From positions 1 to 35,738 of the IMG/VR virus record IMGVR_UViG_3300044855_000299: a stretch of 35,738 nucleotides of DNA. One strand, given 5' to 3'. This document shows, one piece after another, positions 16,023 to 35,738 of the stretch. Under the pieces are notes generated by a model. It saw nothing but the letters and a program-made list of their open reading frames with translations, searched no databases and was not told the DNA's origin. The position numbers were made by a program, and so were the translations under genes. Source of the DNA: a virus (Duplodnaviria > Caudoviricetes). Numbering within the stretch: the stretch's first letter is position 1; every line of letters starts with the position of its first letter.

Positions 16023-16023
16023 A

Positions 16024-16719: not shown

Positions 16720-16720
16720 T

Positions 16721-19297: not shown

Positions 19298-19305
19298 GGG
19301 GGCAT

Positions 19306-20208: not shown

Positions 20209-20359
20209 TTTGTCATATCACAACGACTCTTGTCTCTGTAACAGCGAAAATAATAGTTGCGTATATTAAAATATTAAGTTTTTAAAAGAAAATCTTCAGT
20301 CGGTGGGCTTTCTCTTTTATTTCAACAGTTTAAAGTTTAAAATTATATATCGTCTGACT

Positions 20360-20367
20360 TATAAATA
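20360..20367 (+). promoter_or_regulatory. T4-type late promoter TATAAATA
   Basis: Exact consensus upstream of fibre gene 20405. Confidence 0.8.
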
Positions 20368-20404
20368 GTCAAAAACTAGGTCTAACATTTTAACATTAAT
20401 TATT

Positions 20405-23400
20405 ATGGGCGCTACGCAAATTACCGGAACACAGATAAGGGACGGCTCGGTACAAAGAAAAGACCTCGATGTTACTACGACGGGGCAGGCCGTTATAAGA
20501 AAAGTAATCGCAGGAAGTGGAATTAGTCTTTCTTGGACTGGCGTAGATGCGGGAACGGGGGATGTTACAATTAGCTCTACCGGAGGCGGTGGTGGAGGTT
20601 CGGGAATATCAACTCTTAACACTTTAACCGATTCAATTCAGACATTTGCGGTCGGTAATTCTGGTACAGACTTTGCCATTTCTAGTTCTGGTTCAGTTCA
20701 TACGTTTAACTTACCCGACGCTTCGGCTACGGCTAGAGGTTTAATTAGCACAGGAACGCAGGTAATTGCAGGTAGTAAAGACTTCACAGCAAATGCTAGA
20801 CCTACAGTGAGTGGCAATTACTATCGATTTGGCGTAAACGCTTACCCGGACATAACCGCAAATACAACTCGATACAATAAGATTATTGAATTGGAAGGCT
20901 CTAATCCCTTAATATCAGCAGGTGTAACTGATTCGGGATATAGAATAGCATTAGGAATCGAAAATTATTTCGATCATGTTGGATTCGCTGGAACTTTAAA
21001 TGAAAGCACTGGTATTTGGGCTAGAGTCGGAACAGACACGGCGTCGCCGACGGGTACGATCACTAATGTATATGCCGTAAAAGCTCAAATTCTTAAAGGA
21101 GCTAACGCAACACATACAAATGCTTTTGGGTTCTATGAATACAGCCAAGACTCAAACAGTAAAAACTATATGCAGAGTCCTCTAGGACTCAACACGACAA
21201 GTGTGTCTGCACAATTGCATGTGCAAACGAATGGCGCTGCACAAAGGGGCATACTTGTTCGAGGTTCTGCTTCGCAAACAGAAAACCTTCTTGAAATTCA
21301 AAATAATAGCTCAACGACCCTTTTTGCTGTTGACTCCTCCGGTACATTAACAGCCGGAACTATACCAGCAGCCAGAATAACGGGATTATCGACCGGAATT
21401 ACGAGTTTAAACGCACTCACCGAAGTAACACAGACTTTTGCAACAGGCACAGCAGGGGCAGACTTCGCAATCTCCAGCTCTGGCTCAACGCATACATTTA
21501 ATCTTCCCGACGCATCGGCGAGTAATAGAGGCTTAGTTACTACAGGATCCCAAACATTTGCCGGTGTTAAAACTTTTAACTCTGGAATAAGCATTGGTGC
21601 TGACTCTAATTTGGGCGGCTTTAAGCTCACTAACGTAGGCACTCCCGTATCAGCTAATGATGTCGCCACGAAAGCATACGTAGACTCAATCACGTTCCCG
21701 ATGGATGTTAAAAATTCCTGTAGAGTCGGAACAACTGCCAATATTACCCTTTCTGGTACGCAAACCATTGACGGCATTTCGGTTGTTGCTGGTGATCGAG
21801 TATTAGTAAAAAATCAAACAACTGGATCACAAAACGGCATTTATGTTGTTGCTTCAGGCGCGTGGTCTCGCTCATCAGACGCAGACTCTAGCGCAAAGGT
21901 TACTGCTAATATGTTTGTGTTTGTTTCCGAAGGTTCAACCCAAGCAGATACTCAATGGGTTTTGACAACTAACGATACTATCACACTTGACACAACTGCT
22001 TTAAATTTTGTGCAATTTGGCTCTTCGCCTGGTACTGGCATTAATACACTGAATGGTTTGTCGACTACATCTCAAACGTTTGCGGTTGGAACATCAGGGA
22101 CAGATTTTTCTATTTCCAGCTCTGGCTCAACGCATACATTTAATCTTCCTGACGCATCAGCGAGTAATAGAGGATTGATCACTACAGGAACCCAAACATT
22201 CGCCGGTACTAAAACGTTTAGTAGTAGTGATACATTTTTCCAAAATATTAGAGTAGGCACTATTTATCCGAGAAGCGGGGAAAATAACATCACGCTACTA
22301 ACAAGCAGCAGTGGTACTCTGTTTCTAAATGGTGGCACTCGTATTAACTTTGCATCCCAAAGTTTCGATTGGTCCATTAACGCCTTCACGCGCATGCAAT
22401 TTACTAATAATAGCTATTTACAAATTGGAAATCTAGGTGCTGCTCCCGGTGGAGGCTGGAATGCTCATTTACAAATAGCTTCACTTTCGGCAACAAATCG
22501 CGGTCTCGTAATTCAAGGCGCTTCGTCTCAAAGTGCAAATTTAATTGAGCTTCAAACTCATGCTTCAGCAACTGTCTTTTCTGTGAACCCATCCGGGGTT
22601 ACGACAATGGCAGAAGCAGTATGTAATACTATCAAAAATACTGGTAGCAATAATTTAGCTCTAACGACAACAAATGCACAAGATATTAACTTTAATACAA
22701 ATAATACGGCAAGGTGGACTATAAGCAGTAGTGGTCTTCTGTATAATAATACCAGTACAGCAAACCTTTCAATTATTGGCGATGCAGTTGGGCATGATAC
22801 TGCCAATTATGCACCACTCGGAGTTACGAGATCAGATACTTTAAACGATTTAACTTACATAGCATTTACTCGCTCCGGTAATGCCGTCTGGGGAATTGGA
22901 TACGGCACCGGAAACGAAAGAGTGCTATGCGGAGGAGTTGCTTCGGGTAAATCGTTTCACTCAAAGGATTTCACTTATAATCCTGGAATTAACAATGGCG
23001 AATTTAGAACAAAAGGTGACGCCTTTGCATTAAACATTAATGGCAGTGGAGATCGAAATACTTTTATCGATTTTTATAGTCGAAGTGGTGTTAATTATTA
23101 TGATGCAAGAATAATTAGAAGACCAGGCGCAACTGCGAATTTTGAGATAATCAATAACAGTGGTGGAATAACATTCTATACAAATGATCTATTACGATGG
23201 ACTATTAATTCTTCTGGCACGTTGACGTCATCCTCTGGTATCGGAATTTCATGTGCTGCGATTCAATGCTCTTCGGTGGAAGCTACCGGAGGAGCAACAT
23301 TCGGAGATGTTATCACTGTCAATAACTCGATTAGAGTCTACGGAATAAGAACGAGAAGTGGCTTTAGTGGGAGTTGGGGTAATAACCAGTTTAATATAGA

Positions 23401-23788
23401 CTGGACTGGCAGTGCTCAATTATGGATTGATGGTACTAACGTCGGAACTATTCAAATTGTATCAGACTACAGAGTAAAGAAAAATGTAGTCACGCAAACC
23501 GAAAATGCAATTGATAGAATTAAACAAATCAGACCAGTTACTTATCAAAGGGCAAATTACGGAGATATCTTTTTTGAGTCTGAGGAAATACGTGAAGGAT
23601 TCGTCGCACACGAATTAGCAGAAATAATTCCAAGCGCCGTAGAAGGTGAAAAAGATGCACCAAATCAAATACAATCGTTGAAACTCGATGCGCTGTGTTC
23701 GGTTCTGGTAAAAGCAGTACAGGAATTAACCTCAAAGGTAGAGCAGTTAGAAGAGCGTTTAAGTGTACTAGAGGGTAATAACGAATAA
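20405..23788 (+). CDS. long tail fibre with C-terminal intramolecular chaperone (peptidase S74-like)
   Basis: Gly/Ser/Thr-rich; three internal repeats; DRVLVKNQT...QNGIY module; SDYRVKKNV..., GFVAHEL, LVKAVQEL. Confidence 0.9.
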   Translation: MGATQITGTQIRDGSVQRKDLDVTTTGQAVIRKVIAGSGISLSWTGVDAGTGDVTISSTGGGGGGSGISTLNTLTDSIQTFAVGNSGTDFAISSSGSVHTFNLPDASATARGLISTGTQVIAGSKDFTANARPTVSGNYYRFGVNAYPDITANTTRYNKIIELEGSNPLISAGVTDSGYRIALGIENYFDHVGFAGTLNESTGIWARVGTDTASPTGTITNVYAVKAQILKGANATHTNAFGFYEYSQDSNSKNYMQSPLGLNTTSVSAQLHVQTNGAAQRGILVRGSASQTENLLEIQNNSSTTLFAVDSSGTLTAGTIPAARITGLSTGITSLNALTEVTQTFATGTAGADFAISSSGSTHTFNLPDASASNRGLVTTGSQTFAGVKTFNSGISIGADSNLGGFKLTNVGTPVSANDVATKAYVDSITFPMDVKNSCRVGTTANITLSGTQTIDGISVVAGDRVLVKNQTTGSQNGIYVVASGAWSRSSDADSSAKVTANMFVFVSEGSTQADTQWVLTTNDTITLDTTALNFVQFGSSPGTGINTLNGLSTTSQTFAVGTSGTDFSISSSGSTHTFNLPDASASNRGLITTGTQTFAGTKTFSSSDTFFQNIRVGTIYPRSGENNITLLTSSSGTLFLNGGTRINFASQSFDWSINAFTRMQFTNNSYLQIGNLGAAPGGGWNAHLQIASLSATNRGLVIQGASSQSANLIELQTHASATVFSVNPSGVTTMAEAVCNTIKNTGSNNLALTTTNAQDINFNTNNTARWTISSSGLLYNNTSTANLSIIGDAVGHDTANYAPLGVTRSDTLNDLTYIAFTRSGNAVWGIGYGTGNERVLCGGVASGKSFHSKDFTYNPGINNGEFRTKGDAFALNINGSGDRNTFIDFYSRSGVNYYDARIIRRPGATANFEIINNSGGITFYTNDLLRWTINSSGTLTSSSGIGISCAAIQCSSVEATGGATFGDVITVNNSIRVYGIRTRSGFSGSWGNNQFNIDWTGSAQLWIDGTNVGTIQIVSDYRVKKNVVTQTENAIDRIKQIRPVTYQRANYGDIFFESEEIREGFVAHELAEIIPSAVEGEKDAPNQIQSLKLDALCSVLVKAVQELTSKVEQLEERLSVLEGNNE
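21473..22173 (+). repeat. intragenic direct repeat 21473-21531 / 22115-22173
   Basis: 57/59 nt identical by eye; a third, more diverged copy near 20680-20740. Confidence 0.85.
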
Positions 23789-23803
23789 GGTAATTTTCGG
23801 TGA

Positions 23804-23811
23804 TATAAATA
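23804..23811 (+). promoter_or_regulatory. T4-type late promoter TATAAATA
   Basis: Exact consensus in the intergenic region before ORF 23874. Confidence 0.75.
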
Positions 23812-23873
23812 TCCTGTAATAATCTCATTACGAGAAGCATTGAATATTTTAATGATTTTAACGGAGATTTTAA

Positions 23874-24098
23874 ATGAGCGAGCAAGCAGAGAAAAAGGAA
23901 ATTACTTTACCGGAAGTTTCAAAAGCTATTGAAATTGTTGGAGTTTTACTCAATCAAATTACCATTCCAGCAAATCGTGCTCAAGAGTTTGCTCTTTTGA
24001 CTTCAACTTTAGGTGAACTTAAAGCTTTCGTTGATGGTAAAATCAATGAAAATGCACCTGAAGTTGCGGAGGAAGTGATCAATACTCCTGAGTCTTAA
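23874..24098 (+). CDS. hypothetical acidic protein
   Basis: GGAG SD, late promoter, 74 aa. Confidence 0.7.
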   Translation: MSEQAEKKEITLPEVSKAIEIVGVLLNQITIPANRAQEFALLTSTLGELKAFVDGKINENAPEVAEEVINTPES

Positions 24099-24171
24099 CA
24101 TATCGGACACTTCATCGTTCCAAAGCGTTTAAGCATAAATAAAAAACACTTTATTAACTTAAACGCGAAAG

Positions 24172-24179
24172 CATAAATA
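24172..24179 (+). promoter_or_regulatory. late promoter variant CATAAATA (second copy at 24134-24141)
   Basis: One mismatch to consensus; immediately before ORF 24183. Confidence 0.5.
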
Positions 24180-24182
24180 GAG

Positions 24183-24443
24183 ATGTTATTAAGTGAGACT
24201 TTTCAGATGATACTTAAAGAAGCACAAGACGTTACCCCAATTCATAGTGATGTTGATATCGATTCATCGGTAAAAGCAATTCGCGTGGGTCATAGCGGAG
24301 ATCTTGTGGTTCTTTTATCAAAAGATAGCACTCCAGTCACATTAGAAAACGTCGGTCCAAACGACCCGATTTTACAGTTTATAAGAATAAAGAAGATTTT
24401 CAAAGCAGGAACAACTGCGAAAAATATTATTGCTTTAAAGTAA
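24183..24443 (+). CDS. head spike-base-like protein (RcGTA Rcc01079 family-like)
   Basis: VTP..SD....KAIRVG.SGDLVV....VT..NV...IL...RIKKI...GTTA.NIIAL pattern. Confidence 0.65.
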   Translation: MLLSETFQMILKEAQDVTPIHSDVDIDSSVKAIRVGHSGDLVVLLSKDSTPVTLENVGPNDPILQFIRIKKIFKAGTTAKNIIALK

Positions 24444-24508
24444 CAGTAAAATCAAGTGAGTGGTGCTTAAAATCATCTGAAGCAAAAACTAAGTGTGAGA
24501 GGAACGAA

Positions 24509-25048
24509 ATGCTTCAGCCCCCAGTGACAGATGTTGTTTGTAAGGAAAGTGTGGGAATTTGGTCTCATCTGCATACATTTGCAATATCGACGATTGCTGT
24601 GTTTGCGCCATTAAAGAGCGTAATGTTTGCTCTTTTATTTCTCGTCTCAGTCGATGTTATCACCGGCATTTGGGCTGCAATTGTTACAAATAAACCTCTT
24701 ACCTCTCGAAGACTTGCCCGTACAATAGTAAAAACGTTTGTTTATCTTACCACTATTTGCGTAGTTCATGTGGCAAACAAATACTTACTCTCGGCTGGAG
24801 AATTTAGTCTACCTTTGGACACGCTCATCGTCGGTTTTATTGCTCTCACTGAACTAAAATCAATACTTGAAAATCTGCAAAAAATTCAGAAACAACCTCT
24901 TCTTCAATTTGTAATTGATAGAATCGCGTCTGATTCTTCAAGGGCGCTTGAGCAAATAGAACCCGAAGACAAACCTGAGATACAGCCTAAGACAAAGCCT
25001 AAGACACCAAAGGAGAAAAAAGGTGGCACTTCCAACCGACAGAAATAG
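24509..25048 (+). CDS. holin (phage holin 4 family-like)
   Basis: TM helices; DVITG, LTSRRL..TIVK, ELKSILENL; basic C-terminal tail. Confidence 0.8.
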   Translation: MLQPPVTDVVCKESVGIWSHLHTFAISTIAVFAPLKSVMFALLFLVSVDVITGIWAAIVTNKPLTSRRLARTIVKTFVYLTTICVVHVANKYLLSAGEFSLPLDTLIVGFIALTELKSILENLQKIQKQPLLQFVIDRIASDSSRALEQIEPEDKPEIQPKTKPKTPKEKKGGTSNRQK

Positions 25049-26009
25049 TTTAATTAAATTCTGTCTTCAGGAACTCGGCGCTCCAGTCATTCAAATAAAC
25101 CTTGATGAGGAGCAAATTGAGAATCAGGTAGACAAGGCTTTAGAACTCTTTAAAGAGTACCACATTGATGGTACAGCCATCTACTATAAAGCTTTCAAGG
25201 CTGAGGGCTCTAAGCTAAAACTTGCCGCAACACCCCCAAATGACTTTCAATATCGAGAAATCGTTCAAGGCTCAACGTCCGGTGCTCAAGGGCGAGTAGA
25301 AGCGTACGATAAGGCAAATAAAGAAATCACCTTTATATTTCCAGATCGCATATCCCCTAAGCATTTCGTAAATGGTGAGATTATTACAGGTAATCAATCG
25401 GGAGTAAATGCAACACTTGCCTCTAATGAGGCACAAATACTTGGTAGTATTGATAAGAAATATCTCGACCTTCCTGACTCCGTTATAGGAATCATTGATG
25501 TTTTAAAATCTAGAAGCACTTTCGGTTCACACCCGATTAACCCATTTGATTTACAATATCAACTTGCACAGCAAGTGACTATTCATACATTTTTAAATGC
25601 TGATGTCGTTACGTACTACATGTATCAGCAAGATATATCACTTTGGGATCAGTTATTTACAGGAGTCAATCCTCATTGGCATTCACGCAAAGAAAACCGC
25701 CTTTATATACACACCAATTGGACTGAAGAATATAAAATTGGTCAATACATCGTCGTCAAATTTTGGGGAGCTGTAAAACCAGAAGACTTCCCTAAAGTGT
25801 ACGGCGATAAATGGATTAGAAAATACCTAACGGCACTGCTTCAGGTTCAGTGGGGGCGAAATCTCACCAAGTTTACTAATGTGGCTCTACCGGGTGGTAT
25901 TACGCTAAATGGGGAACAGATTCTTCTCTCCGGTGAAAAGGCTAAGGAGGAAGCTGAAATCGAATTGCGCTCGACTTACGAAATGAGAACCCCATTTAAA
26001 ATTGGGTAA
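25023..26009 (+). CDS. gp13: neck protein gp13-like
   Basis: LGAPVIQIN..EEQ, EYHIDG, W.RKY.TAL...QWG.NL.KF..V.LPGG.TLNG; GTG start with AGGAG. Confidence 0.93.
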   Translation: MALPTDRNSLIKFCLQELGAPVIQINLDEEQIENQVDKALELFKEYHIDGTAIYYKAFKAEGSKLKLAATPPNDFQYREIVQGSTSGAQGRVEAYDKANKEITFIFPDRISPKHFVNGEIITGNQSGVNATLASNEAQILGSIDKKYLDLPDSVIGIIDVLKSRSTFGSHPINPFDLQYQLAQQVTIHTFLNADVVTYYMYQQDISLWDQLFTGVNPHWHSRKENRLYIHTNWTEEYKIGQYIVVKFWGAVKPEDFPKVYGDKWIRKYLTALLQVQWGRNLTKFTNVALPGGITLNGEQILLSGEKAKEEAEIELRSTYEMRTPFKIG

Positions 26010-26018
26010 GAGTTTCGC

Positions 26019-26879
26019 ATGACAGCAAACAAATATTTCAATCTTTTTAAGAATAAAAGCGAGCAAAGCTTACTTGATAGTCTCATGAACGAGACTATTG
26101 CCATTCATGGAATGAACTGTATATACATTAAACGTTCCGGTCCTGTTGATCTCTTCTACGGCGAAGACCCTCTAGCAAAATTTACCAAATGGTTTGAAAT
26201 GGTTGCCTACATAAAAAATGTAGATGGCTTTAGTGGTAGGGCAATGATGCAGAAGTGGGGCATCACGATGGAGCAATCCATTACAATTCAAATAGGTAAA
26301 ACTGAATTTACTAGACAAGTTGGTACCGAGCTAGATCCCGTAAATAGGCCACGCGAGGGTGACTTATTATATTTCCCGTATGGTTTACCGGGTCAGTATC
26401 TCCTTGAAATTAAATATGTAACCGACAACGTACCGTTTGTTGAACTTGGGCGAGATTACCTTTACGAAATTGATTGTCGCATGTTCACGTACAGCAATGA
26501 GGACTTAGACACTGGCATCTCTGAAATTGATAATATCGAAGATGAAATCAAGCAGGGCATTGAAGTTGACCTTGGAAGCGGTACGGGGCAATTTGTTAAG
26601 AATGAAATAGTCTATCAAGGCTCCTCGTTTGCTAATTCAAAATTTAGAGCTGTTGTTAAGAATATCGACGGCTCAACCTTACACCTTTCAAACATAACCG
26701 GAACTCTGAACGAGAGTCTTCCACTGAAGGGTAACACATCGAATGCCAGCAGAGCCGTTGGAGGAGACCAACAAGACATCATCAATGATGCCTCAGCTCA
26801 AAACAAAATTATTCAAACAAAATCTGAGAATGTCGTAATAAAGAATTCGAGGAATCCTTTCGATAAGGGTAAGTTCTAA
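26019..26879 (+). CDS. gp14: neck protein gp14-like
   Basis: E.I.IHG....YI.R, RPREGDLLYFP, F.YS.E..DTG..EID, NPF. Confidence 0.92.
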   Translation: MTANKYFNLFKNKSEQSLLDSLMNETIAIHGMNCIYIKRSGPVDLFYGEDPLAKFTKWFEMVAYIKNVDGFSGRAMMQKWGITMEQSITIQIGKTEFTRQVGTELDPVNRPREGDLLYFPYGLPGQYLLEIKYVTDNVPFVELGRDYLYEIDCRMFTYSNEDLDTGISEIDNIEDEIKQGIEVDLGSGTGQFVKNEIVYQGSSFANSKFRAVVKNIDGSTLHLSNITGTLNESLPLKGNTSNASRAVGGDQQDIINDASAQNKIIQTKSENVVIKNSRNPFDKGKF

Positions 26880-27706
26880 TGTTTACACACTTTTATCATG
26901 GGACACTAGAAAAGGTTACAAAAGCGTTCGGTACGCTCTTTAATCGTATCTTTGTGGTCAAATATGATGAAAGCGGAGAGGAGATTGAAAGAAACTTAGT
27001 ACCCATAAACTATGCCACTAGACACGCCTATATTGCTCGTCTGGAGTCGCAACCCGACCTTGAAGACTCACTCTACGTCGAGGCTAAGTTCCCACGTCTT
27101 GCATATGAAATCGTAGCCATTACGTACGATGGAAATAGGAAGCTAAACACAATCCATCGAAATGCTGGAAGTGTGAATCCAGATGGCAGTCGTAATGTTG
27201 CTTACAATTCAGTAGCTTATAATATTGATTTCGTGCTGACTATAATTGCTAAACATGTGGTCGACGCAAATCAAATCTTAGAGCAGATTCTTCCTTACTT
27301 CACGCCCTCTTATACCATAAAAATCAATTCGATACCTGAAATGGGCTACGAAGAAAACGTCACCATCGAACTTAACGGAATCGGTATATCAGATAACTAC
27401 CAAGATGAACTCAACGTTCAGCAGCGACAAGTTCGCTACGAATTAAGTTTTACGGCTAAAGCATGTTTTCATGGACCAGTCGAAACTGCTAAAATCATTA
27501 AGAAAGTACAGGTTGATATCTCGACGCCGAGAGATTTCGACGAAGCTATTCTCGAAAAAACGCCAAGAAAGGCCAGAGCCACTATAGAGACCGACCCACC
27601 CGATGCTGATCCTGGAGATGATTTTGGATACACGGAAACATGGCAAGAGTTTAATGACAACAAAAAGTATAATCCTGTAACCGGCACAGACGAAGAGATC
27701 ACTTAG
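26879..27706 (+). CDS. gp15: tail sheath stabiliser/terminator gp15-like
   Basis: FYH......AFGTLFN, VPI.Y, PR..YE....YD..RKL, QILEQILPYF.P. Confidence 0.93.
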   Translation: MFTHFYHGTLEKVTKAFGTLFNRIFVVKYDESGEEIERNLVPINYATRHAYIARLESQPDLEDSLYVEAKFPRLAYEIVAITYDGNRKLNTIHRNAGSVNPDGSRNVAYNSVAYNIDFVLTIIAKHVVDANQILEQILPYFTPSYTIKINSIPEMGYEENVTIELNGIGISDNYQDELNVQQRQVRYELSFTAKACFHGPVETAKIIKKVQVDISTPRDFDEAILEKTPRKARATIETDPPDADPGDDFGYTETWQEFNDNKKYNPVTGTDEEIT

Positions 27707-27724
27707 AAGGTAATGTTATCTGAA

Positions 27725-27781
27725 AGGATGCTTTTGTTACATTTATTCTACGTATTGTAGTTTAAATTAATAAAGCATCCT
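27725..27781 (+). promoter_or_regulatory. long imperfect hairpin ending at the start codon of ORF 27782
   Basis: aggatgcttt (27725-34) / aaagcatcct (27772-81) perfect 10 bp, with further inner pairing to ctac/gtag. Confidence 0.65.
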
Positions 27782-28021
27782 ATGAGTAAGAAGAAAACAA
27801 ATCTTGAAACACTTGAAGCAAAGCTAACACAGCACCTCCAAGCACTAGAAGCCATGTTTCCGAAAGGTATAAACATTTCAATTATCGGAACCGATACAAC
27901 TGGCGCTCAACGTGAATTTGTAATCAGTTCAGAGACTCCAGCTAATCTCATTAGCGCACTAAAGCGAACTACAAAGCGAATAGCTCAAGAGGATAAAGAA
28001 CAAAAGGGTAAAAGACTATAA
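27782..28021 (+). CDS. hypothetical protein
   Basis: 79-aa ORF after gp15. Confidence 0.65.
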   Translation: MSKKKTNLETLEAKLTQHLQALEAMFPKGINISIIGTDTTGAQREFVISSETPANLISALKRTTKRIAQEDKEQKGKRL

Positions 28022-28027
28022 GCCAGA

Positions 28028-28411
28028 TTAAATCCGATTTAAAAATCCTTTAATAAAGGATATTTGCATTAAATCAATGGCACCACTTCGACTTTCATTC
28101 ATACCAGCCTCTATAAGATTAACTACAAGTGTCAAACCTACGCTAAGTATAATCAAAGAGACTGTTATGAAATGTTTAAATAATGCCCTCGAAGGGGTAA
28201 TAGGGGTATTCTTCTGTATTCTGAATAGGGGAGTTTTATGTCCCCCATTACTATGCCGAAATATTATAAATTCCCCTGCACGAGTCTGAGACATCGAAAC
28301 AGTTGAACCTCGGCGAACTTGTTCATCCAGAAGCTGATTTGCCACGCTATACGCATCGCCCATCACCTCAGCGACGATTTCTCCAGTTTGGGGATCAATT
28401 ACATATATCAT
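28028..28411 (-). CDS. hypothetical membrane-anchored protein
   Basis: 127 aa with a C-terminal hydrophobic helix; own sigma70 promoter. Confidence 0.65.
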   Translation of the reverse strand: MIYVIDPQTGEIVAEVMGDAYSVANQLLDEQVRRGSTVSMSQTRAGEFIIFRHSNGGHKTPLFRIQKNTPITPSRALFKHFITVSLIILSVGLTLVVNLIEAGMNESRSGAIDLMQISFIKGFLNRI

Positions 28412-28417
28412 AATTTT

Positions 28418-28446
28418 ATTATATCACGCCCCTCGTAAGACTTCAA
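28418..28446 (-). promoter_or_regulatory. sigma70-type promoter TTGAAG-N17-TATAAT with extended TG
   Basis: Near-perfect consensus; the -10 ends 6 nt before the ATG at 28411. Confidence 0.8.
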
Positions 28447-28487
28447 ACATTATTTATCGCAACATCAAAAAAAGTAAATGTGAGCCT

Positions 28488-29093
28488 ATGCTCCAAAGTT
28501 TTACAATCAAATTCATGAAATACTACAGAATCGGCCAGCTACCAAAACATCTTTATCTTTATGTCGATACACATTTCACTCATAAAGAGTCTATAGGATA
28601 TCAGCCATGTATTTGGTTCGGCCTTGTCTCATACCCATCAAGAGCATGGGGCGCTAATCTACTACTAGAAAGCGGTGCCATATATCGGAATGTTCCACTT
28701 CATGCTCTATCTTACATCAAAGAAGCTAACCCATGGTCATTAGAAAAAGCTCAGCTTTACAATTGCTATTCTGACCAGTTTACAATCCTCGAATACGACT
28801 ACCTCTCAGGTATGAAGTGTGCTGTCAAAATAACAAACAATGCCCTTTGTCCTATGCTCATCGGCCATTATCTTTTCACCGTAGCACCACTGCACGACGG
28901 CTTCTCCGATGAGCCAGAACAAAATAAAGAATTAAAATTCATCGCACTAGAAAATGGTAGAATAACAGTTCAGCCGACTAATTACTTGAAATTTGAAGAT
29001 GTAAGCTTCACCTCAAAGATAAAAGATGATGTCACTCTACCAAAAGGGCTGAAATGCCAAAAGGAAATCTATCGAGCAGACGAAGGACTATAA
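28488..29093 (+). CDS. conserved hypothetical phage protein
   Basis: WFG..S.P.RA, LE.GAIY..VP.HAL, EQNK, LENG....QPTN pattern; true start may be 28515. Confidence 0.7.
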   Translation: MLQSFTIKFMKYYRIGQLPKHLYLYVDTHFTHKESIGYQPCIWFGLVSYPSRAWGANLLLESGAIYRNVPLHALSYIKEANPWSLEKAQLYNCYSDQFTILEYDYLSGMKCAVKITNNALCPMLIGHYLFTVAPLHDGFSDEPEQNKELKFIALENGRITVQPTNYLKFEDVSFTSKIKDDVTLPKGLKCQKEIYRADEGL

Positions 29094-29116
29094 TGTGATA
29101 TACTTTAATTAATTGT

Positions 29117-29665
29117 ATGAATATATTCTATCTAAGCAGTAACCCCGAAACCTGCGCTCAATATCATGTAGATAAACATGTAGTCAAAATGATACTAGAG
29201 TATGCCCAACTGCTATCAACAACTCATAGAGTCATAGACGGAACACAAGCCGAAACCAAATCAGACAAAGGCAGAAAGAAAACAGTTTACACTCTACCTG
29301 ACCAAAGAGACCAAACTTTATATCAAGCCACTCACATTAATCATCCAAGTGCTAAATGGACTAGACACTCAATACACAATTACAATTGGTTATATCAAAT
29401 GTGGTTAGCTCTAATGGAAGAGTACACACACAGATATGAAAAGATTCATACATGCGAAAAGCTAAAACTAGCCTTGGCTAATCCTCCATCAAATATTCCA
29501 AGTAACCCATTCTCAGCCCCTTGGAGAGCAATGCCAGAGGAATTTAAAATATCTCGCACAGTGCAAGATTATACAATCCACTCATATCGAGCATATTACA
29601 ACGGAGCTAAATCTAAAATGTTTAGCTGGAAGAATAGACCTAAACCTGAATGGGTAAGTCTATAA
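29117..29665 (+). CDS. pyrimidine-dimer DNA glycosylase (DenV-like) family protein
   Basis: MNIFYL..NP..CAQYH.DKHVVKMILEYAQLLST, TH.NHPS..W, Y..RY.K.H; extended -10 TGATATACT at 29096-29104. Confidence 0.85.
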   Translation: MNIFYLSSNPETCAQYHVDKHVVKMILEYAQLLSTTHRVIDGTQAETKSDKGRKKTVYTLPDQRDQTLYQATHINHPSAKWTRHSIHNYNWLYQMWLALMEEYTHRYEKIHTCEKLKLALANPPSNIPSNPFSAPWRAMPEEFKISRTVQDYTIHSYRAYYNGAKSKMFSWKNRPKPEWVSL

Positions 29666-29693
29666 GATTCTACGGAGCGAATAGTTCTTATTT

Positions 29694-29701
29694 AATAAAT
29701 A
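29694..29701 (+). promoter_or_regulatory. late promoter variant AATAAATA
   Basis: 6 nt before the ATG at 29708. Confidence 0.55.
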
Positions 29702-29707
29702 AGAGCT

Positions 29708-30193
29708 ATGTTAACTTTTCTTCAATATCTAAATCTCCTTGAATCGGACTCTCCTTTAGTTCTCTATCACGGAGGGAAAAGATACGTATCAAAACCAAAT
29801 TTAAAACTCACCCAGCAGACAGACAGGGGAGTGTACGGCAAAGGATTTTATACCACTACTAATCCTAAGCACGCATCAATGTACGGTTCCAAGATTAGCC
29901 AGTACGAAGTTTCACCAGAAGCAAAAGTTTTAAAATCTACATTCGACCCCAAAGAAGCTGAACCATCACAGGTAAACGATGTACTATCTCACCATCAAAA
30001 ATCAAATCCAAAAGCTTCACAATCTGACCTAGACCAGATACGAACAAATCACTCTGATTGGAACAAAGCCCTAAATGATTACGCTGACCATCACAAGTTT
30101 GATATGGTGCATCTCTCACAAGCTCACTATGAACCAGAGATAGTTGTTAAAAATCCAAAAGCAGTGCGCTATCTCGGTAAACATAAAGCATAG
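29708..30193 (+). CDS. ADP-ribosyltransferase-like protein (H-Y-E type), probably virion-packaged
   Basis: LYHG, YGKGFYTT.....A..YG, EPEIVV; N-terminal MLTFLQYLNLLE resembles a capsid-targeting leader. Confidence 0.65.
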   Translation: MLTFLQYLNLLESDSPLVLYHGGKRYVSKPNLKLTQQTDRGVYGKGFYTTTNPKHASMYGSKISQYEVSPEAKVLKSTFDPKEAEPSQVNDVLSHHQKSNPKASQSDLDQIRTNHSDWNKALNDYADHHKFDMVHLSQAHYEPEIVVKNPKAVRYLGKHKA

Positions 30194-30237
30194 TCTATTG
30201 TATAATTACCGGATCCACCGATCCCATATAGTCTCAT

Positions 30238-30431
30238 ATCTCGCCTTGGCGATCTTTTCACTCTCTCCCTATAAGATTATATGGCCGCTAATAGCTCATA
30301 GTGGACATTAGCTCATAAATATAACGATTCCCATTTTCGCCACCTCGCACTAGCGAATACTGCGAATAAATCAAATAAAATCAAATGCTAATCTCGCCTT
30401 GGCGAAACTATTGCATTTTGTCGCCTTGGCG
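30238..30431 (+). repeat. three inverted-orientation CGCCTTGGCG cores (30242, 30395, 30422)
   Basis: Reverse complement of the array core; 30400-30415 TGGCGAAACTATTGCA is a GG-N10-GC box on +. Confidence 0.85.
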
Positions 30432-30606
30432 CATTTCTAGTCAAATTTGAAAAAGTCGAACCCAAAGGGTGCGCCAAGGCGAGATTTGAATCCCCCAGTG
30501 TCAGAATATTCGATTTACGCGCCAATGCGAGATTCTCGTAGGCAATTTTCGCAAAGTTTGACGTTTTCTATGTTATGTCAATCAAAGATTTTCGTAGCTG
30601 ATGATG

Positions 30607-30836
30607 CGCCAAGGCGATTAGTGCAAGAACCTCGCCAAGGCGATTAGTGCAAGAACCTCGCCAAGGCGATTAGTGCAAGAACCTCGCCAAGGCGATTAGT
30701 GCAAGAACCTCGCCAAGGCGACCAGTGCAAGAGTCGCGCCAAGGCGACAGGATGCAAGAACCTCGCCAAGGCGACCAGTGCAAGAGTCGCGCCAAGGCGA
30801 CAGGATGCAAGAGTCGCGCCAAGGCGACCAGTGCAA
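30607..30836 (-). repeat. tandem array of 26-27-bp units, each a sigma54 -24/-12-like box on the minus strand
   Basis: CGCCAAGGCG cores at 30607, 30633, 30659, 30685, 30711, 30737, 30764, 30790, 30817; minus strand reads TTGGCGAGGTTCTTGCA or TTGGCGCGACTCTTGCA (8 complete boxes). Confidence 0.93.
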
Positions 30837-30933
30837 TTATCCAATGGTATTTTGACAATAGAAGTGCTTTTTTCCTACCCTACAAGGAAGCAATTTGATC
30901 AATTAAGTTAGACTACAGGAGAAGATTCTATGT

Positions 30934-31209
30934 TTAATCTTCAGCATAGGGAGATATATCCTTATTACATACTACACAGAATAGATTGTCGGGATCATAA
31001 TTGGATGATGAATCAATCCATATCTCACCATCTAAGAAGTCTGCATCTTCCCATATTTGATCGAATTGACCTCTCGCACAGCATCCACAGAATGTATCGC
31101 AATCGGGAGATGTAAATACTATCAATTGTGATTGTGTCGAGACTGCAAGATTGGTAAATTCGTGCTTTTCTGTTAGCTTCTTACCTGTAGTATGGTTAGA
31201 GTATTTCAT
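30934..31209 (-). CDS. small Cys-rich (CxxC...CxxC) hypothetical protein
   Basis: CGCC and CVVC; AAGGTG SD; downstream of repeat promoter copy A. Confidence 0.75.
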   Translation of the reverse strand: MKYSNHTTGKKLTEKHEFTNLAVSTQSQLIVFTSPDCDTFCGCCARGQFDQIWEDADFLDGEIWIDSSSNYDPDNLFCVVCNKDISPYAED

Positions 31210-31249
31210 TATTGCACCTTATAGTTCGACTGTTACCATCTATAGTAAT

Positions 31250-31276
31250 ATATCGGCAGACTTCAAACAATCTTTA
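31250..31276 (-). promoter_or_regulatory. sigma28-type promoter, copy A
   Basis: TAAA-gattgtttgaagtct(15)-GCCGATAT. Confidence 0.8.
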
Positions 31277-31355
31277 GAGAAGTGTGAATGTTTTTTATGC
31301 GGTCTGGTGTTTGCTTAAGAGAATAATCCTTGCAAATAGCAAGAATCATTCAATT

Positions 31356-31371
31356 AGCAATAATTATGCCA
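31356..31371 (-). promoter_or_regulatory. sigma54-type promoter TGGCATAATTATTGCT
   Basis: TGGCA(T)-N5-TTGCT with exact GG-N10-GC spacing. Confidence 0.7.
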
Positions 31372-31444
31372 AGGGATTTCGGCGCAGGTGCGCCGTCCGT
31401 CCCGCCCCCGTTAGGGCTCCCACTGCCTTGTGCCTACATATAAT

Positions 31445-31471
31445 ATATCGGCAGACTTCAAACAATCTTTA
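31445..31471 (-). promoter_or_regulatory. sigma28-type promoter, copy B
   Basis: TAAA-N15-GCCGATAT, just downstream of a terminator. Confidence 0.75.
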
Positions 31472-31480
31472 ATGTTTTTT

Positions 31481-31509
31481 AAAAAAAAATGCCACCCCGA
31501 AAGGTGGCA
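31481..31509 (-). terminator. intrinsic terminator with UUCG loop
   Basis: Minus strand TGCCACCT-TTCG-GGGTGGCA followed by T9. Confidence 0.9.
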
Positions 31510-31533
31510 CCAAAAAACGTGGAGGGTCGTTTT

Positions 31534-31689
31534 TTATGCGATGATAAAATCCCGTAAGATACTGAAAACTATTTGACCTTTAGTGTTTATATAATGAATC
31601 CAAGTATTTGTATTATTCTGATAAAGAGGACCGTGAAAAGATTCTAGGGCATCTATAATCTTTACTATCTCAGCAAGTGTGGTTTTCAT
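31534..31689 (-). CDS. small hypothetical protein, 51 aa (not in ORF track)
   Basis: TAAGGA SD, MKTTLAEIVKIIDALESFHGPLYQ...DFIIA*, followed by the terminator. Confidence 0.7.
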   Translation of the reverse strand: MKTTLAEIVKIIDALESFHGPLYQNNTNTWIHYINTKGQIVFSILRDFIIA

Positions 31690-31710
31690 GGGTTTCCTTA
31701 TTTTTGAAAT

Positions 31711-32043
31711 CTAATTAAGTACTGATTCAACTAATTGTCTTCCAGCTTCTTTGAATATGCACGTTCCAGATGAAAGACTCCAACCTTCTCCTGCTTTTTT
31801 GAGAAGGTCTATATCAGCTAAATCTTTCTGTGATGTAATGAGAGCATCCCAATATGAAAGATGTATAGAATTAAAGTGTTCGCATTTGTGGTAGCCTATT
31901 ACTAATGCCTCGATTCCAAATGTATTTTCTACAGCCTGTCTAATTTGATCATTTACGAATTGTGAATAATATTGACGGTGAATTGTGAATCCATCACTCT
32001 TATCGTCTCTAGGTGCATTTAGATAATCCTGCCTCGTAATCAT
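31711..32043 (-). CDS. conserved hypothetical phage early protein
   Basis: HRQYYSQFV, HFN.I.L..WD, SLS...C..KEA.RQ; start reassigned to the ATG after the GGAGG SD. Confidence 0.8.
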   Translation of the reverse strand: MITRQDYLNAPRDDKSDGFTIHRQYYSQFVNDQIRQAVENTFGIEALVIGYHKCEHFNSIHLSYWDALITSQKDLADIDLLKKAGEGWSLSSGTCIFKEAGRQLVESVLN

Positions 32044-32075
32044 TGTATCCTCCATCATCTACCATCTATAGTAAT

Positions 32076-32102
32076 ATATCGCCAGACTTCAAACAATCTT
32101 TA
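32076..32102 (-). promoter_or_regulatory. sigma28-type promoter, copy C
   Basis: TAAA-N15-GGCGATAT plus shared leader. Confidence 0.7.
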
Positions 32103-32125
32103 GAAAAAAATATAACTTTTTAATT

Positions 32126-32413
32126 TTATAATCTGAGAGTTTTGAGATATTCAGCTGCTCTATCAAATCCAATAGGCGACGAGTTTCGCACGTGCGACCA
32201 ATCGAAGTTTAGAACTTTAGCCGACTCCAAATCCATTTCTCCCAATCCATTGCACAGAAGGTAAGCTTGCGTATATTGCTCATCAGTTAAGAATGCATAT
32301 TCGGTTCCTTGATACTTAAGAAAACCAAGTACTAGACTTACATTATCCCAATTATACAGGCGACCATCTCTCTTTTCTGCTTCATCTATTAATTCTTTTT
32401 GAATATCAAACAT
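32126..32413 (-). CDS. hypothetical protein
   Basis: GAGGTG SD; DWSHVRNSS motif. Confidence 0.75.
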   Translation of the reverse strand: MFDIQKELIDEAEKRDGRLYNWDNVSLVLGFLKYQGTEYAFLTDEQYTQAYLLCNGLGEMDLESAKVLNFDWSHVRNSSPIGFDRAAEYLKTLRL

Positions 32414-32420
32414 GACACCT

Positions 32421-32612
32421 CTAATAGTTTTCTCTTACTATTGTTTCACTACTAACTACAGTTCCGTATTGGACAATCAGCTCTATTTCAAATTTACCCT
32501 TTAGTGCGTTTACTTTTCGGCAATATTCGGTAGCTCTCCTCTTTGAATGAAAAACTCCAACACTCTCTACTCCGTTGTTATCTTTAATTTTAATTGTGAA
32601 TTTTCTTTTCAT
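32421..32612 (-). CDS. small basic hypothetical protein
   Basis: GAGGGAG SD; downstream of copy D. Confidence 0.7.
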   Translation of the reverse strand: MKRKFTIKIKDNNGVESVGVFHSKRRATEYCRKVNALKGKFEIELIVQYGTVVSSETIVRENY

Positions 32613-32642
32613 GACTCCCTCTCATCTATCTTCTAATATAGT

Positions 32643-32669
32643 ATATCGTCAGACTTCAAACAAACTTTA
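32643..32669 (-). promoter_or_regulatory. sigma28-type promoter, copy D
   Basis: TAAAGTTT-N11-GACGATAT (full extended FliA -35); overlaps the upstream gene's TAA stop. Confidence 0.75.
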
Positions 32670-32936
32670 GAAATTATTTGATTGTGCTAATCCGTCAATG
32701 ACACCTTTTACATAAGCTAAGGTGCAATAACTATTACTTTCCTGTTCCCATGAGTTATGAGGAATAGGGTAAAATATAAATTCGCTCCCGTGTCTTCTTG
32801 CTTCACCTTCACGCAATCCCCATCGGTAGACTGCTTCATTCTGTGGGATATTAAGAGATCTAACTTCATTACGAATTTGTGTATAAGTGCCACCTTGCCA
32901 TTGGAGCGCCTCTAAAACTCGTTGTAGCGTGTTCAT
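32667..32936 (-). CDS. hypothetical protein
   Basis: AL.WQGGT..Q motif; start reassigned to the ATG after GGAGG. Confidence 0.75.
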   Translation of the reverse strand: MNTLQRVLEALQWQGGTYTQIRNEVRSLNIPQNEAVYRWGLREGEARRHGSEFIFYPIPHNSWEQESNSYCTLAYVKGVIDGLAQSNNF

Positions 32937-32968
32937 TGTGTCCTCCATCATCTACCATCTATAGTACT

Positions 32969-32995
32969 ATATCGTCAGACTTCAAACAAGCTTAA
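32969..32995 (-). promoter_or_regulatory. sigma28-type promoter, copy E
   Basis: TTAA-N15-GACGATAT plus shared leader. Confidence 0.65.
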
Positions 32996-33073
32996 TAATA
33001 ATTTTGTAAAAAAATTCAGGTTTAAATTTTGCTGAGTGGTTCAGAATGTGCAAGTAGCAAGAATCATTCAATT

Positions 33074-33089
33074 AGCAATAATTATGCCA
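33074..33089 (-). promoter_or_regulatory. sigma54-type promoter TGGCATAATTATTGCT
   Basis: Identical to 31356-31371. Confidence 0.7.
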
Positions 33090-33162
33090 AGGGATTTCGG
33101 CGCAGGTGCGCCGTCCGTCCCGCCCCCGTTAGGGCTCCCACTGCCTTGTGCCTACATATATT

Positions 33163-33189
33163 CTATCGTCAGACTTCAAACAATCTTTA
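33163..33189 (-). promoter_or_regulatory. sigma28-type promoter, copy F
   Basis: TAAA-N15-GACGATAG. Confidence 0.65.
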
Positions 33190-33253
33190 ATGTTTTTGAA
33201 AATATTTTATTGGGTAATGTTCGAGATATTTTTGGGTTCACTACTCTATATGA

Positions 33254-34087
33254 ATGATAGCACTAGGTCAGATCTATAATGAGAATTGCTTGGACACTCT
33301 AAAATGTGTCCCTGCTAATTTCATTGATCTGATAATCACAAGTCCACCCTACGATAATTTACGAACATATAACGGGTATTCATTCGAATTTGAAAAGATC
33401 GCACCTGAACTCTTTAGGGCTCTTAAGCCTGGTGGCGTAGTGGTGTGGGTCGTCGGAGATTCCACCAAGGACGGCTCAGAGTCGGGAACTTCTTTCCGGC
33501 AAGCACTCCACTTTAAAGATATTGGCTTTAATCTCCACGATACGATGATCTACATGAAGGATAATCCACCACCAACTGGCGGTCCGACTCGTTACTATCA
33601 ATCATTTGAGTATTGTTTTATACTTAGCAAGGGTACTCCGAAAACGTTTAATCCGATAGTTGAGCCAAGACGCAATAAACACAACGATAAGCGCACAGTC
33701 AGAACTCGCGCCATTACTCGCAATCGTGCTGGAACATTTACACAGAAGGAGATTCCCATAAACACCGGAAACGTAAAGTTGCAAAATGTATGGAATTATA
33801 CGGTAGGTGGTGGGAGCGTCGCATCTGATATGATCGCTCATGAGCATCCGGCAATCTTTCCGGAAGCCTTAGTCAGAGATCACATCGTGAGCTGGTCTAA
33901 TGAAGGGGATGTTATATATGATCCTTTCATGGGAAGCGGCACAGTGGCCATCGTCGCAATTAGCTTAAACCGGCAATACTTTGGTTCTGAGATCAGTACT
34001 GAGTATGTGGAGATTGCTCAAAGGAGAATCTCCAACCATCGACAATCATTAGAGACTTTCAATATAATTGATCACATCTTGCGGTAA
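33254..34087 (+). CDS. orphan DNA N4-cytosine/N6-adenine methyltransferase (beta class)
   Basis: ITSPPY (motif IV) precedes HPAIFP and DPFMGSGT (motif I). Confidence 0.93.
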   Translation: MIALGQIYNENCLDTLKCVPANFIDLIITSPPYDNLRTYNGYSFEFEKIAPELFRALKPGGVVVWVVGDSTKDGSESGTSFRQALHFKDIGFNLHDTMIYMKDNPPPTGGPTRYYQSFEYCFILSKGTPKTFNPIVEPRRNKHNDKRTVRTRAITRNRAGTFTQKEIPINTGNVKLQNVWNYTVGGGSVASDMIAHEHPAIFPEALVRDHIVSWSNEGDVIYDPFMGSGTVAIVAISLNRQYFGSEISTEYVEIAQRRISNHRQSLETFNIIDHILR

Positions 34088-34465
34088 CTCCTCAGTAAGC
34101 CATGCGCTCCCGTATCGGTAGCCGTTATCATCTAATAAATTCACCGATTTGAGAAAATCACAAGCTTGGTCATACCAATTCAACCGACTAAAAGAATCCT
34201 TAACTTCTCTTAGTGCTTGTTCCTGAGCAAGTGTCCCTGCTCTCATATCATTTAAGTGCCATCTTTCCCATATATCTACAAGCTTACTTGGTATTAAGTC
34301 TTTTGCTTCCTCGCGACACTGGCCAGCTGAGATTAAGTTTTTTTCACTTTTAAGCAGTTTCTTTCCCGTATAAACAGTCCCAGTAATACTTAGTCGGCCA
34401 TTTTCTAATCGAATTTCAATATCTGCTGATTTAGTTTCATTAGAAAAGTGTAGATTCTTTTTCAT
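34049..34465 (-). CDS. conserved hypothetical phage protein
   Basis: SAGQC, IW.RWHLNDM.AG...Q, Y.YGSAWL.EELP; start reassigned to the ATG after GGAG. Confidence 0.8.
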   Translation of the reverse strand: MKKNLHFSNETKSADIEIRLENGRLSITGTVYTGKKLLKSEKNLISAGQCREEAKDLIPSKLVDIWERWHLNDMRAGTLAQEQALREVKDSFSRLNWYDQACDFLKSVNLLDDNGYRYGSAWLTEELPQDVINYIESL

Positions 34466-34497
34466 TTTGCTCTCCATCATCTACCATCTATAGTAAC

Positions 34498-34524
34498 ATA
34501 TCGGCAGACTTCAAACAATCTTTA
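34498..34524 (-). promoter_or_regulatory. sigma28-type promoter, copy G
   Basis: TAAA-N15-GCCGATAT plus shared leader. Confidence 0.8.
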
Positions 34525-34548
34525 GAGAATATTTGTGCAGACACAATT

Positions 34549-34577
34549 TCAGTTGTTAAGTAATCCTTAACAACTGA
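34549..34577. repeat. perfect 12-bp inverted repeat with 5-nt spacer
   Basis: TCAGTTGTTAAG-taatc-CTTAACAACTGA. Confidence 0.85.
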
Positions 34578-34799
34578 CCAAATTCAGCAGCCGATGGTAC
34601 ATTTACCTACAAGATTTCCTGATTAACAAAATACGGATAACGTCAAATTAAATGGAAATGTGGCGTAATTTAGATAGCTTAGAGTTTGGGCTGTTCTAGT
34701 GTTTTTCTATATGGAGATATGGATTTGATCTAAGGAATTTGCGTATAAGTTGCAAGTGGGAATGTTTGATTATGCGGCGATTATTTTATTATTTAAGGT

Positions 34800-35180
34800 A
34801 TGAATAATAAATCTTTTATAACTGGCTCTCACGCATACGGCATTCCAACTGAGGACTCTGACATAGACATAGCAGTCTGCCTTACAAGAGATGAAATTGT
34901 TAAACTTTGGCAAATGTCAGATTCTAAAAGCAAATTAATGTTTGGGAAGATAAATCTAGTTTGCTTTAATTTCGATGACGAAGAAGACATGCAAAGATTT
35001 GAAAAATGGAAAACTACAAATGACTCCTTAGTCGCCAAGCGCCCAGTAACAAAAGAGGAAGCAATACAAGCTTTCCGAGAATCCGGAGCGGAATATAACT
35101 ACAAAAGAGTAGAATTGTCAGGACCGACAATAGCTGATGCTATGAAGACAGATTTAAGAGCCTTATCCGAAAATGAGTAA
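34800..35180 (+). CDS. minimal nucleotidyltransferase-like protein
   Basis: TGSHAYG..TEDSDIDI (GS...DxD) pol-beta superfamily motif. Confidence 0.65.
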   Translation: MNNKSFITGSHAYGIPTEDSDIDIAVCLTRDEIVKLWQMSDSKSKLMFGKINLVCFNFDDEEDMQRFEKWKTTNDSLVAKRPVTKEEAIQAFRESGAEYNYKRVELSGPTIADAMKTDLRALSENE

Positions 35181-35308
35181 TTATGGGCTGGGGATATTGT
35201 GGCATAAACAAACGCACAGGGCAGGAAATGGGATATAATGCTCAAAAATAATCGACATTTTGTAGAATCAAAAAATGTAAATGTTTGCTTACTTATAAGA
35301 AATTACCC

Positions 35309-35738
35309 ATGAACAACGCCGTTGAACGAATATTGGAACTAACACCAATGCTAAGAGATTTTGTGGGCGAAAGACCTCAATATCCCCTTGGCTCTACGGT
35401 CTACGCCGTTAGCGTAAGCAATGCAGCAATTTACAAAATTTATGGTCTTTATTTAAGCTCAGAGCAATCAAGATATATGGGGAAGCCCTTTTACCAAGGG
35501 TTTTACGAGTCGTCTCCAGGAAAGATAACCGAATATCCATTTTATATTCATAGGCATTTTGTAGCTTACACATGGGAACAAGCAAAACAAATGGCAATTT
35601 GTCATATTGCACAAAATGCTAGAATCTATCTGGAGTTTCCGAATTTTGATGATCTAATAAGTCGTTTTTGTAAAGCTCTTGAATTATCAAATGGTCTAGT
35701 TGAGTCAAACTGGAATTATTTTATTGAACCTTTACTGC
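35309..35738 (+). CDS. hypothetical protein, truncated by window end
   Basis: Open frame MNNAVERILELTPMLRDF... running to the last base; not in ORF track. Confidence 0.65.
   Translation, partial: MNNAVERILELTPMLRDFVGERPQYPLGSTVYAVSVSNAAIYKIYGLYLSSEQSRYMGKPFYQGFYESSPGKITEYPFYIHRHFVAYTWEQAKQMAICHIAQNARIYLEFPNFDDLISRFCKALELSNGLVESNWNYFIEPLL

Follow-up and report, generated by a model that had tools for sequence, protein, structure and literature searches.

We propose that seven near-identical repeats on the minus strand of the virus record IMGVR_UViG_3300044855_000299 (Duplodnaviria, Caudoviricetes) are early promoters read by the host flagellar sigma factor FliA (sigma-28), probably in a predator of the Bdellovibrionota, and that each encloses a predicted regulator box. 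We regard this combined reading, which draws on sequence comparison, as moderately probable. The record was analyzed over its full 35,738 nucleotides (nt), here called the window; by completeness estimate, this is about 25% of the genome of an uncultured T4-like phage.

Seven copies of one repeat family

The pattern TAAA-N15-GNCGATA has six exact matches on the minus strand of the window against 0.06 expected, and none of 100 shuffles gave six. A seventh copy (32969-32995) carries TTAAG; over the seven, the -35 element is TAAAG six times and TTAAG once. The -10 element is GCCGATA in three copies, GACGATA in three, and GGCGATA in one, with CGA invariant; GCCGATAT occurs in three (34498, 31445, and 31250) and the extended -35 TAAAGTTT in one (32643). 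A preliminary description of this DNA had listed the seven copies with three perfect -10 elements, one extended -35, and one TTAA, and all are present as described.

The copies differ from one another at 0 to 3 of 27 bases, share the spacer TTGTTTGAAGTCTG in all seven cases, and are one repeat family. Therefore, neither the shuffle statistic nor the exact spacing counts as seven independent events; the exact spacing emphasized in the preliminary description is real, but as the invariant spacer of a repeat family it offers no independent proof. Five copies stand ahead of open reading frames (ORFs) of 63 to 138 amino acids (aa) with Shine-Dalgarno-like sequences, again as previously described, and the two copies that lack an ORF (33163 and 31445) stand at the head of the two copies of a 154-nt duplication. 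Pfam matched none of the seven small ORFs in the module, and for that reason their earlier designation as host-takeover genes is an inference.

Evidence for the proposed sigma-28 promoters

The window alone is insufficient for the sigma-28 reading put forward earlier, and what sustains it comes from related phages. A search with the window's gp15 gave the relatives G001 (73% identity), G002 (69%; complete, 145 kb), and G003, and motif scans added contigs G004 and G006 to G010, in which the genes common with G002 are mostly 55 to 89% identical. The element in related contigs is tripartite, T(A/T/C)(A/C)AG - N2/3 - TGTTTGAAG-KCK-G(A/C) - CGAT. Its central part, the asymmetric 14-bp box TGTTTGAAG-KCK-G(A/C), forms the spacer and is fixed in place in all seven window copies; the preliminary description had recognized the sigma-28 flanks but overlooked this conserved box, an eighth copy of it, and the duplicated block behind the two copies that lack an ORF.

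Selection by the 14-mer box alone, with G003, G006, G009, and G010 left out as near-copies, gave 34 nonredundant sites, of which 18 have both the -35 element and CGA, none has the -35 only, 3 have CGA only, and 13 have neither (Fisher P = 6e-7). The same covariation appears without the window (11/0/2/13, in the same order; P = 2e-5). GAAG and CGA are invariant in full copies, and the gap between the -35 and the -10 hexamer, which measures 15 nt in the window, can be 15 or 16 nt in relatives, with the position of the box constant. These elements persist among phages that are only 55 to 75% alike in structural proteins.

The start codons provide a second line of evidence. In Bdellovibrio, the attack-phase FliA consensus TTAAG-N16-CCGATA is found in 92 of 140 promoters (PMC3627812; papers are cited here for their accessible portions), and among the first 22 FliA rows of Table S2 of that study, 16 place the transcription start (+1) 8 nt beyond the hexamer, counted by eye; the predicted +1 positions of the window copies derive from this spacing. 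At site 40656 of G002, an ATG lies exactly at the predicted sigma-28 +1 with no Shine-Dalgarno sequence, and its ORF is the orthologue of the window ORF behind copy 4, aligned from residue 1. At site 5541 of G008, the start of MKTFQEY lies exactly at the predicted +1; an in-frame ATG occurs 9 nt earlier, yet the G002 homologue starts at MKTFQEY. A sigma-70 hexamer 12 to 14 nt after the box core would start the transcript inside both genes, which argues against the sigma-70 reading there. Host FliA holoenzyme most likely starts the small genes behind the repeats, judging from these comparisons.

Some features weigh against this assignment. The -35 pattern was fixed after G001, G002, and G004 had been seen and the sites share ancestry, so the P values overstate; only four sites, in G007 and G008, were found after the pattern was set, and all four fit. 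The -10 element is GACGAT rather than GCCGAT in 9 of the 18 full copies. The inventory of sigma factor genes comes from G002 and not from the window, which covers only the quarter of a genome noted above.

Probable host

We consider it likely, from gene links, that the host belongs to the Bdellovibrionota predator group. The N-terminal signature of the G002 subtilase family occurs in two GTDB genomes, one of them titled Bdellovibrionota bacterium, and the order of that genome (91 genomes) is taken here as the candidate host order. The other genome has TTAAG-N15-CCGAT ahead of its subtilase, and the phage subtilase gene is preceded by TCAAG-N16-CCGATA. The XRE-DUF5753 module of G002 has a 67% match in one member of the candidate order, and the extracytoplasmic function (ECF) sigma of G002 has 41 to 44% relatives there, on par with the best nonclade matches anywhere. 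FliA scores over the cutoff in 83 of the 91 genomes. THAAG-N15/16-CCGATA occurs 796 times in 41 genomes of the order versus 348 for the reversed pattern (2.3 times), a control that carries no correction for word composition and to that extent tells against the reading. A G001 peptidase falls closest to an Atlas cluster with two known members, mostly Bdellovibrionota (a weak link).

The preliminary description had named Bdellovibrionota as a candidate, and the gene links of the relatives to a FliA-encoding order agree with this, but none of them comes from window DNA. This is a point against the assignment: the host-linked genes belong to G001 and G002 (gp15 69 to 73% identical to that of the window), and when window 16000-35738 was compared at the DNA level with 124 genomes of the class, a single weak match of 38 nt turned up and no spacer-type link. 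The strict sigma-28 pattern, moreover, lies upstream of only 3 of 42 flagellin-like ORFs in the candidate order, and the sigma-54-like hexamer TTGGCA occurs in 15 of 41 flagellin upstream regions. The earlier suggestion that the phage is tuned to flagellated cells is thus too narrow; FliA in this order seems closer to the regulator of life stage known from Bdellovibrio.

Several observations accompany these results. Host-like secreted proteases on these phages comprise a subtilase and an M12B peptidase (L063 6448-8160 and L039 11322-12590), and at the phage subtilase a box-only site and a sigma-28 site lie 32 nt apart. The candidate-order genomes (L264-L293) contain many flagellin-domain genes (up to 38 matches); sigma-54-like sites, along with several AGGA motifs in the leader, occur at many of the first genes. 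The nearest cultured phages are far off (gp15 40% and gp6 38% identity), and therefore no host can be assigned from them. No tRNAs were found in 12 stretches of G001 to G003. The top seven public runs that best match the window are lake-water metagenomes, of which five are possible sources of the window, and no RNA data set is among the matching runs listed.

The embedded box

The box occurs 19 times in the complete G002 against 0.4 expected. Of 35 exact cores counted in the clade, 33 fall outside long ORFs (a count that includes G006 and G007 duplicates), and 27 of the 33 intergenic cores have a same-strand ORF start within 110 nt (no control). The eighth box copy of the window stands without sigma-28 elements and has TG-n-TATAAT 17 nt after TTGAAG, a sigma-70 geometry. 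Among 16 sites that lack the full sigma-28 pair, 5 have a good -10 element 17 to 18 nt after TTGAAG, including, in G002, the ArdC promoter and that of a tyrosine recombinase; in G004, the gene for the same recombinase has the box, sigma-28 elements, and TATAAT together. Because it is seen with two types of promoter, the box is a separate element.

When IMG/VR was scanned for the core plus CGAT without a -35, 68 matches were obtained, and 13 of them, representing 7 distinct sequences, carried T(A/C/T)(A/C)AG 2 to 3 nt upstream. All 13 are on clade contigs, whereas none of the 55 others, most of which lie in open frames and whose kinship to the clade was not part of the count, had a -35. One metagenome scan with the full pattern found 55 loci but no new members (54 without a clade-protein match and one with a weak match of 29%). 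At L197 and about 18 similar metagenome loci, a bacterial intergenic site with the full -35/core/-10 pattern precedes a GC-rich, structured stretch reminiscent of a cyclic di-GMP riboswitch; Rfam gave no match to it at the gathering score.

The box shows no clear enrichment in candidate hosts: five genomes have 42 matches versus 25 for the control, and the 91 genomes of the candidate order have two exact core-plus-CGAT matches. It is directional and phage-specific, and we predict from its sequence and placement that it is the binding site of a regulator, although no box-binding protein was identified, which counts against this part of the proposal. The XRE-DUF5753 gene was set aside as a reader because it belongs to a four-gene module that travels and is also in a cellular genome. 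That module (small ORF, DUF6879, XRE-DUF5753, and formyltransferase) is common to G002 (L063 13528-16073) and the cellular genome, a member of the candidate order (L312 678-3230).

Alternative readings

The alternative that survives best, though we consider it unlikely, is a promoter of the T4 middle type, in which a phage activator occupies a box centered near -30, sigma-70 uses a TAnnnT hexamer 12 to 14 nt downstream, and sigma-28 is secondary or dual. The hexamer counts favor it at the expense of FliA: five of the seven window copies have TAnnnT 13 nt beyond the 9-bp core, and 10 of the 18 full copies have it 12 to 14 nt beyond the core, versus 3 of the 16 others. The directional, phage-specific nature of the box fits as well, and in T4, 12 +/- 1 bp separate the MotA box from the -10 (PMC2988021). 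However, such promoters give no account of the covariation of the -35 pentamer with CGA. The hexamer is missing in two window copies, overlaps the start codon at G002 40656, and is absent at G008 5541, which starts at the sigma-28 +1; the core TGTTTGAAG also differs from the TGCTT consensus of the MotA box. T4 uses middle promoters at its replication cluster, but no exact-core box site lies ahead of the replication cluster of G002. MotA and AsiA matched none of five records, in searches whose positive control stayed silent.

A second possibility, which we judge improbable, is that the whole element is the promoter of a sigma factor encoded by the phage. The preliminary description had suggested a check for a sigma-28-like factor of the phage's own. 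Two proteins encoded by the complete G002 match sigma domains, namely gp55 and an ECF sigma of 198 aa, and neither is FliA-like. The ECF sigma has 66 to 82% relatives on five other clusters, and the near absence of the invariant core from candidate host regulons (the two exact matches in 91 genomes) would agree with a phage reader. Yet the phage ECF gene is preceded by GAAC-N17-CGT and its ten closest cellular relatives by a conserved GTGACAAC motif, in neither case with a box, which makes the ECF sigma an unlikely reader as far as these sequences indicate. The flanks of the box, moreover, fit the sigma-28 consensus and not an ECF one, and the earliest genes to be expressed cannot rely on a sigma factor made by the phage. 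This clade-conserved gene adjoins gp55 in a T4-like genome (L063 11208-11801; G002 31008-31601), and its upstream motif resembles that of its cellular relatives.

Still less probable, in our view, is an ordinary sigma-70 promoter in a T4-like promoter(early)-stem-loop (PeSL) cassette, in which the sigma-28 match arose by chance in one ancestral copy that was then multiplied. The overlapping TTGTTT-N17-TACTAT had been raised in the preliminary description as an outcome adverse to sigma-28. The copies are indeed near-identical, five of seven fit the TTGTTT-N17-TAnnnT spacing, and the -35 of PeSLs in nt-1 and KVP40 can be as loose as TTGYVH (PMC4122927). But the arrangement is not kept as such in relatives, where the first T of TTGTTT varies (12 of 18) and GAAG and CGA are invariant; two of the window copies lack the -10; and the sigma-28 elements are kept across phages 55 to 75% alike while shifting by one base. 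Finally, it seems very improbable that the repeat is mainly a target for site-specific recombination by the tyrosine recombinases of the clade, with the copies forming a cassette array: G002 has two such recombinases and the copies separate single genes, but the box is not palindromic, intergenic cores lie mostly near same-strand ORF starts (27 of 33, as above), and the promoter elements covary.

Other features of the window

Promoter copies and neighboring features are collected in Table 1.

Table 1. Positions of promoter copies, small ORFs, and other features in the window
Feature	Positions	Strand	Remarks
Promoter copy 1	34498..34524	-	TAAAG, box 34504-34517, GCCGATAT; predicted +1 ~34490
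Promoter copy 2	33163..33189	-	GACGATAG; heads duplicated noncoding block; predicted +1 ~33155
Promoter copy 3	32969..32995	-	TTAAG ... GACGATAT
Promoter copy 4	32643..32669	-	TAAAGTTT ... GACGATAT; gene has G002 orthologue under same promoter type
Promoter copy 5	32076..32102	-	GGCGATAT
Promoter copy 6	31445..31471	-	GCCGATAT; directly after terminator; heads noncoding block; predicted +1 ~31437
Promoter copy 7	31250..31276	-	GCCGATAT
138-aa ORF	34049..34465	-	Function unassigned; relatives up to 52% in other phage contigs
89-aa ORF	32667..32936	-	No family match
63-aa ORF	32421..32612	-	38% identity from residue 1 to G002 ORF starting at predicted +1
95-aa ORF	32126..32413	-	Second gene after copy 4; 49% match in G002
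110-aa ORF	31711..32043	-	PHROG 25437 (unknown function)
51-aa ORF	31534..31689	-	Second gene after copy 5
91-aa Cys-rich ORF	30934..31209	-	After copy 7
N6/N4 DNA methyltransferase	33254..34087	+	Opposite strand, within small-gene module
Intrinsic terminator-like hairpin with T-run	31488..31511	-	Upstream of copy 6
12-bp hairpin	34549..34577	-	Upstream of copy 1
154-nt duplicated block	31331..31484	-	Promoter plus ~100 nt GC-rich noncoding; candidate small RNA
Second copy of 154-nt block	33049..33202	-	97% identical
Eighth box copy, no sigma-28 elements	28418..28449	-	Box 28436-28449; ahead of ORF 28028-28411
Palindrome TCGCC-NN-GGCGA, 13 copies	30241..30836	.	About nine in 26-nt tandem array

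The gene order of the window runs from spanins through baseplate genes gp25/gp6/gp7/gp8, tail fibers, holin, and gp13/14/15 to the small genes. Strong upstream hairpins (-20.5 kcal/mol) are found at two of the seven promoter copies; the remaining copies have values of -2.7 to -12.7. Of 36 loci surrounding relatives of the 138-aa ORF, none has a motif copy, bar one 8-mismatch stretch.

The noncoding GC-rich parts of the duplicated block span 31340-31437 and 33058-33155 (minus strand). Rfam has no match over the block, its fold is not better than that of shuffles (z = -1.26), and nhmmer found no homologue of it among the loci covered. One joint between copies 6 and 3, with a 29-nt side, is present in four of eight runs, and the depth there fits a third copy better than a deletion; unitig depth and the joint together suggest a third copy of the block elsewhere in the genome.

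The copy number of the 26-nt array differs among runs. Read depth right of the array is about twice that on the left in all five well-covered runs (left versus right: 17.8 versus 37, 32 versus 50 to 68, 33 versus 55 to 73, 11 versus 23 to 27, and 25 versus 41 to 51), bearing in mind that contig depth is not a copy number and that the five runs may be one campaign. The simplest reading of the depth is a terminal repeat that holds the early module, as is carried by T5 and SPO1, and the array could be a genome end, an origin, or a partition site.

Three ORFs of interest lie on the plus strand between gp15 and the array (29708-30193 and 28488-29665); they are ADP-ribosyltransferase-like (ART-PolyVal, weak), pyrimidine-dimer glycosylase-like, and a PHROG "ferredoxin." A noncoding stretch of about 200 to 250 nt just upstream of the module looks, by eye, to be kept between window 34560-34790 and G001 (L039 18400-18590), and the G001 version bears a box. 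The 68-kb contig G007 (L155-L158) has no gene in common with the window, covers the complementary part of the G002 gene map, and has the tetranucleotide profile closest to that of the window (r = 0.77); it may represent a further portion of the window's phage or of one close to it.

Proposed mechanism and comparison with known systems

Under the FliA reading, the phage would enter a free-swimming attack-phase cell, where FliA would dominate, and host FliA would start the small accessory genes and the small RNA 7 to 9 nt after CGATA with no phage protein needed. A box-binding protein made later would block the sigma-28 promoters: the box occupies the spacer and extends over the first two bases of the -10, so that a bound protein would exclude FliA polymerase. 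At sigma-70-type sites the box would sit on the -35, so that a single protein could switch all of the early set. Like PeSLs, the repeats would in addition offer points at which recombination exchanges genes. By analogy with the asymmetric sites of mycobacteriophage L5 (PMC9283540), we slightly favor a phage regulator that, through the box, brings early transcription to an end or switches it. A broader scheme, which we offer as speculation and think rather doubtful as a whole, is that this clade of predator phages senses life stage: in attack-phase cells that do not grow, FliA would fire terminally repeated early genes and a multicopy small RNA, and the box protein would close the sigma-28 promoters and control the sigma-70 promoters, switching the program at prey entry.

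T4 attacks cells that are growing, and it has early promoters of the sigma-70 type (PMC2988021). If our reading is true, this is a T4-like phage adapted to a host met mainly as a nondividing swimmer, and phages can sense host life stage through a sigma factor. The conserved box points to a phage or host regulator that acts at two promoter classes, and the clade provides candidate phages for an uncultured Bdellovibrionota-related order.

The closest parallel is with the FliA promoters of Bdellovibrio bacteriovorus, which share the -35 variants (TAAAG, TTAAG, TCAAG, and TTCAG), the 15- to 16-nt spacing, and the CGATA -10, as well as start codons where transcripts begin, leaderless starts being present in Table S2 too (PMC3627812); the FliA dependence of those promoters was itself inferred from the motif. 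Here, the element is on a phage and has a fixed box as its spacer, whereas host spacers vary freely. The sigma-28 promoter of Escherichia coli, TAAAGTTT-n11-GCCGATAA (PMC2859248), has the spacing of the window copies, the full -35 octamer of copy 4, and the GCCGATA of three copies; it differs from them in the second -10 base (A or G in four copies), the fixed spacer, and the phage location. Titles and the beginnings of abstracts held no report of sigma-28-type phage early promoters, within a literature in which most subscription papers were outside reach, and the accessible part of PMC12622784 concerns host promoters only.

Among phage systems, the PeSL cassettes of T4-like phages are likewise repeated units of promoter plus Shine-Dalgarno sequence between small variable genes (PMC4122927; see also PMC2839356), but their promoters are of the sigma-70 type, or the Mot type in nt-1 (PMC4122927), and a strong upstream hairpin accompanies only two of the seven copies here, in contrast to the stem-loop that defines a PeSL. 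T4 middle promoters likewise have a phage-specific, directional box whose distance from the -10 is fixed, although the box sequence is another one and sigma-28 elements flank the box here (PMC2988021). The operators and stoperators of mycobacteriophage L5 are similar in being asymmetric intergenic sites of 13 to 14 bp, about 20 per genome, that overlap promoters (PMC9283540); the difference is that ours is a T4-like phage in which nearly all sites look promoter-linked. Repeated early cassettes are already known as PeSLs; new here are the clade of T4-like phages, the tests based on covariation and on start codons, and the box embedded in the element.

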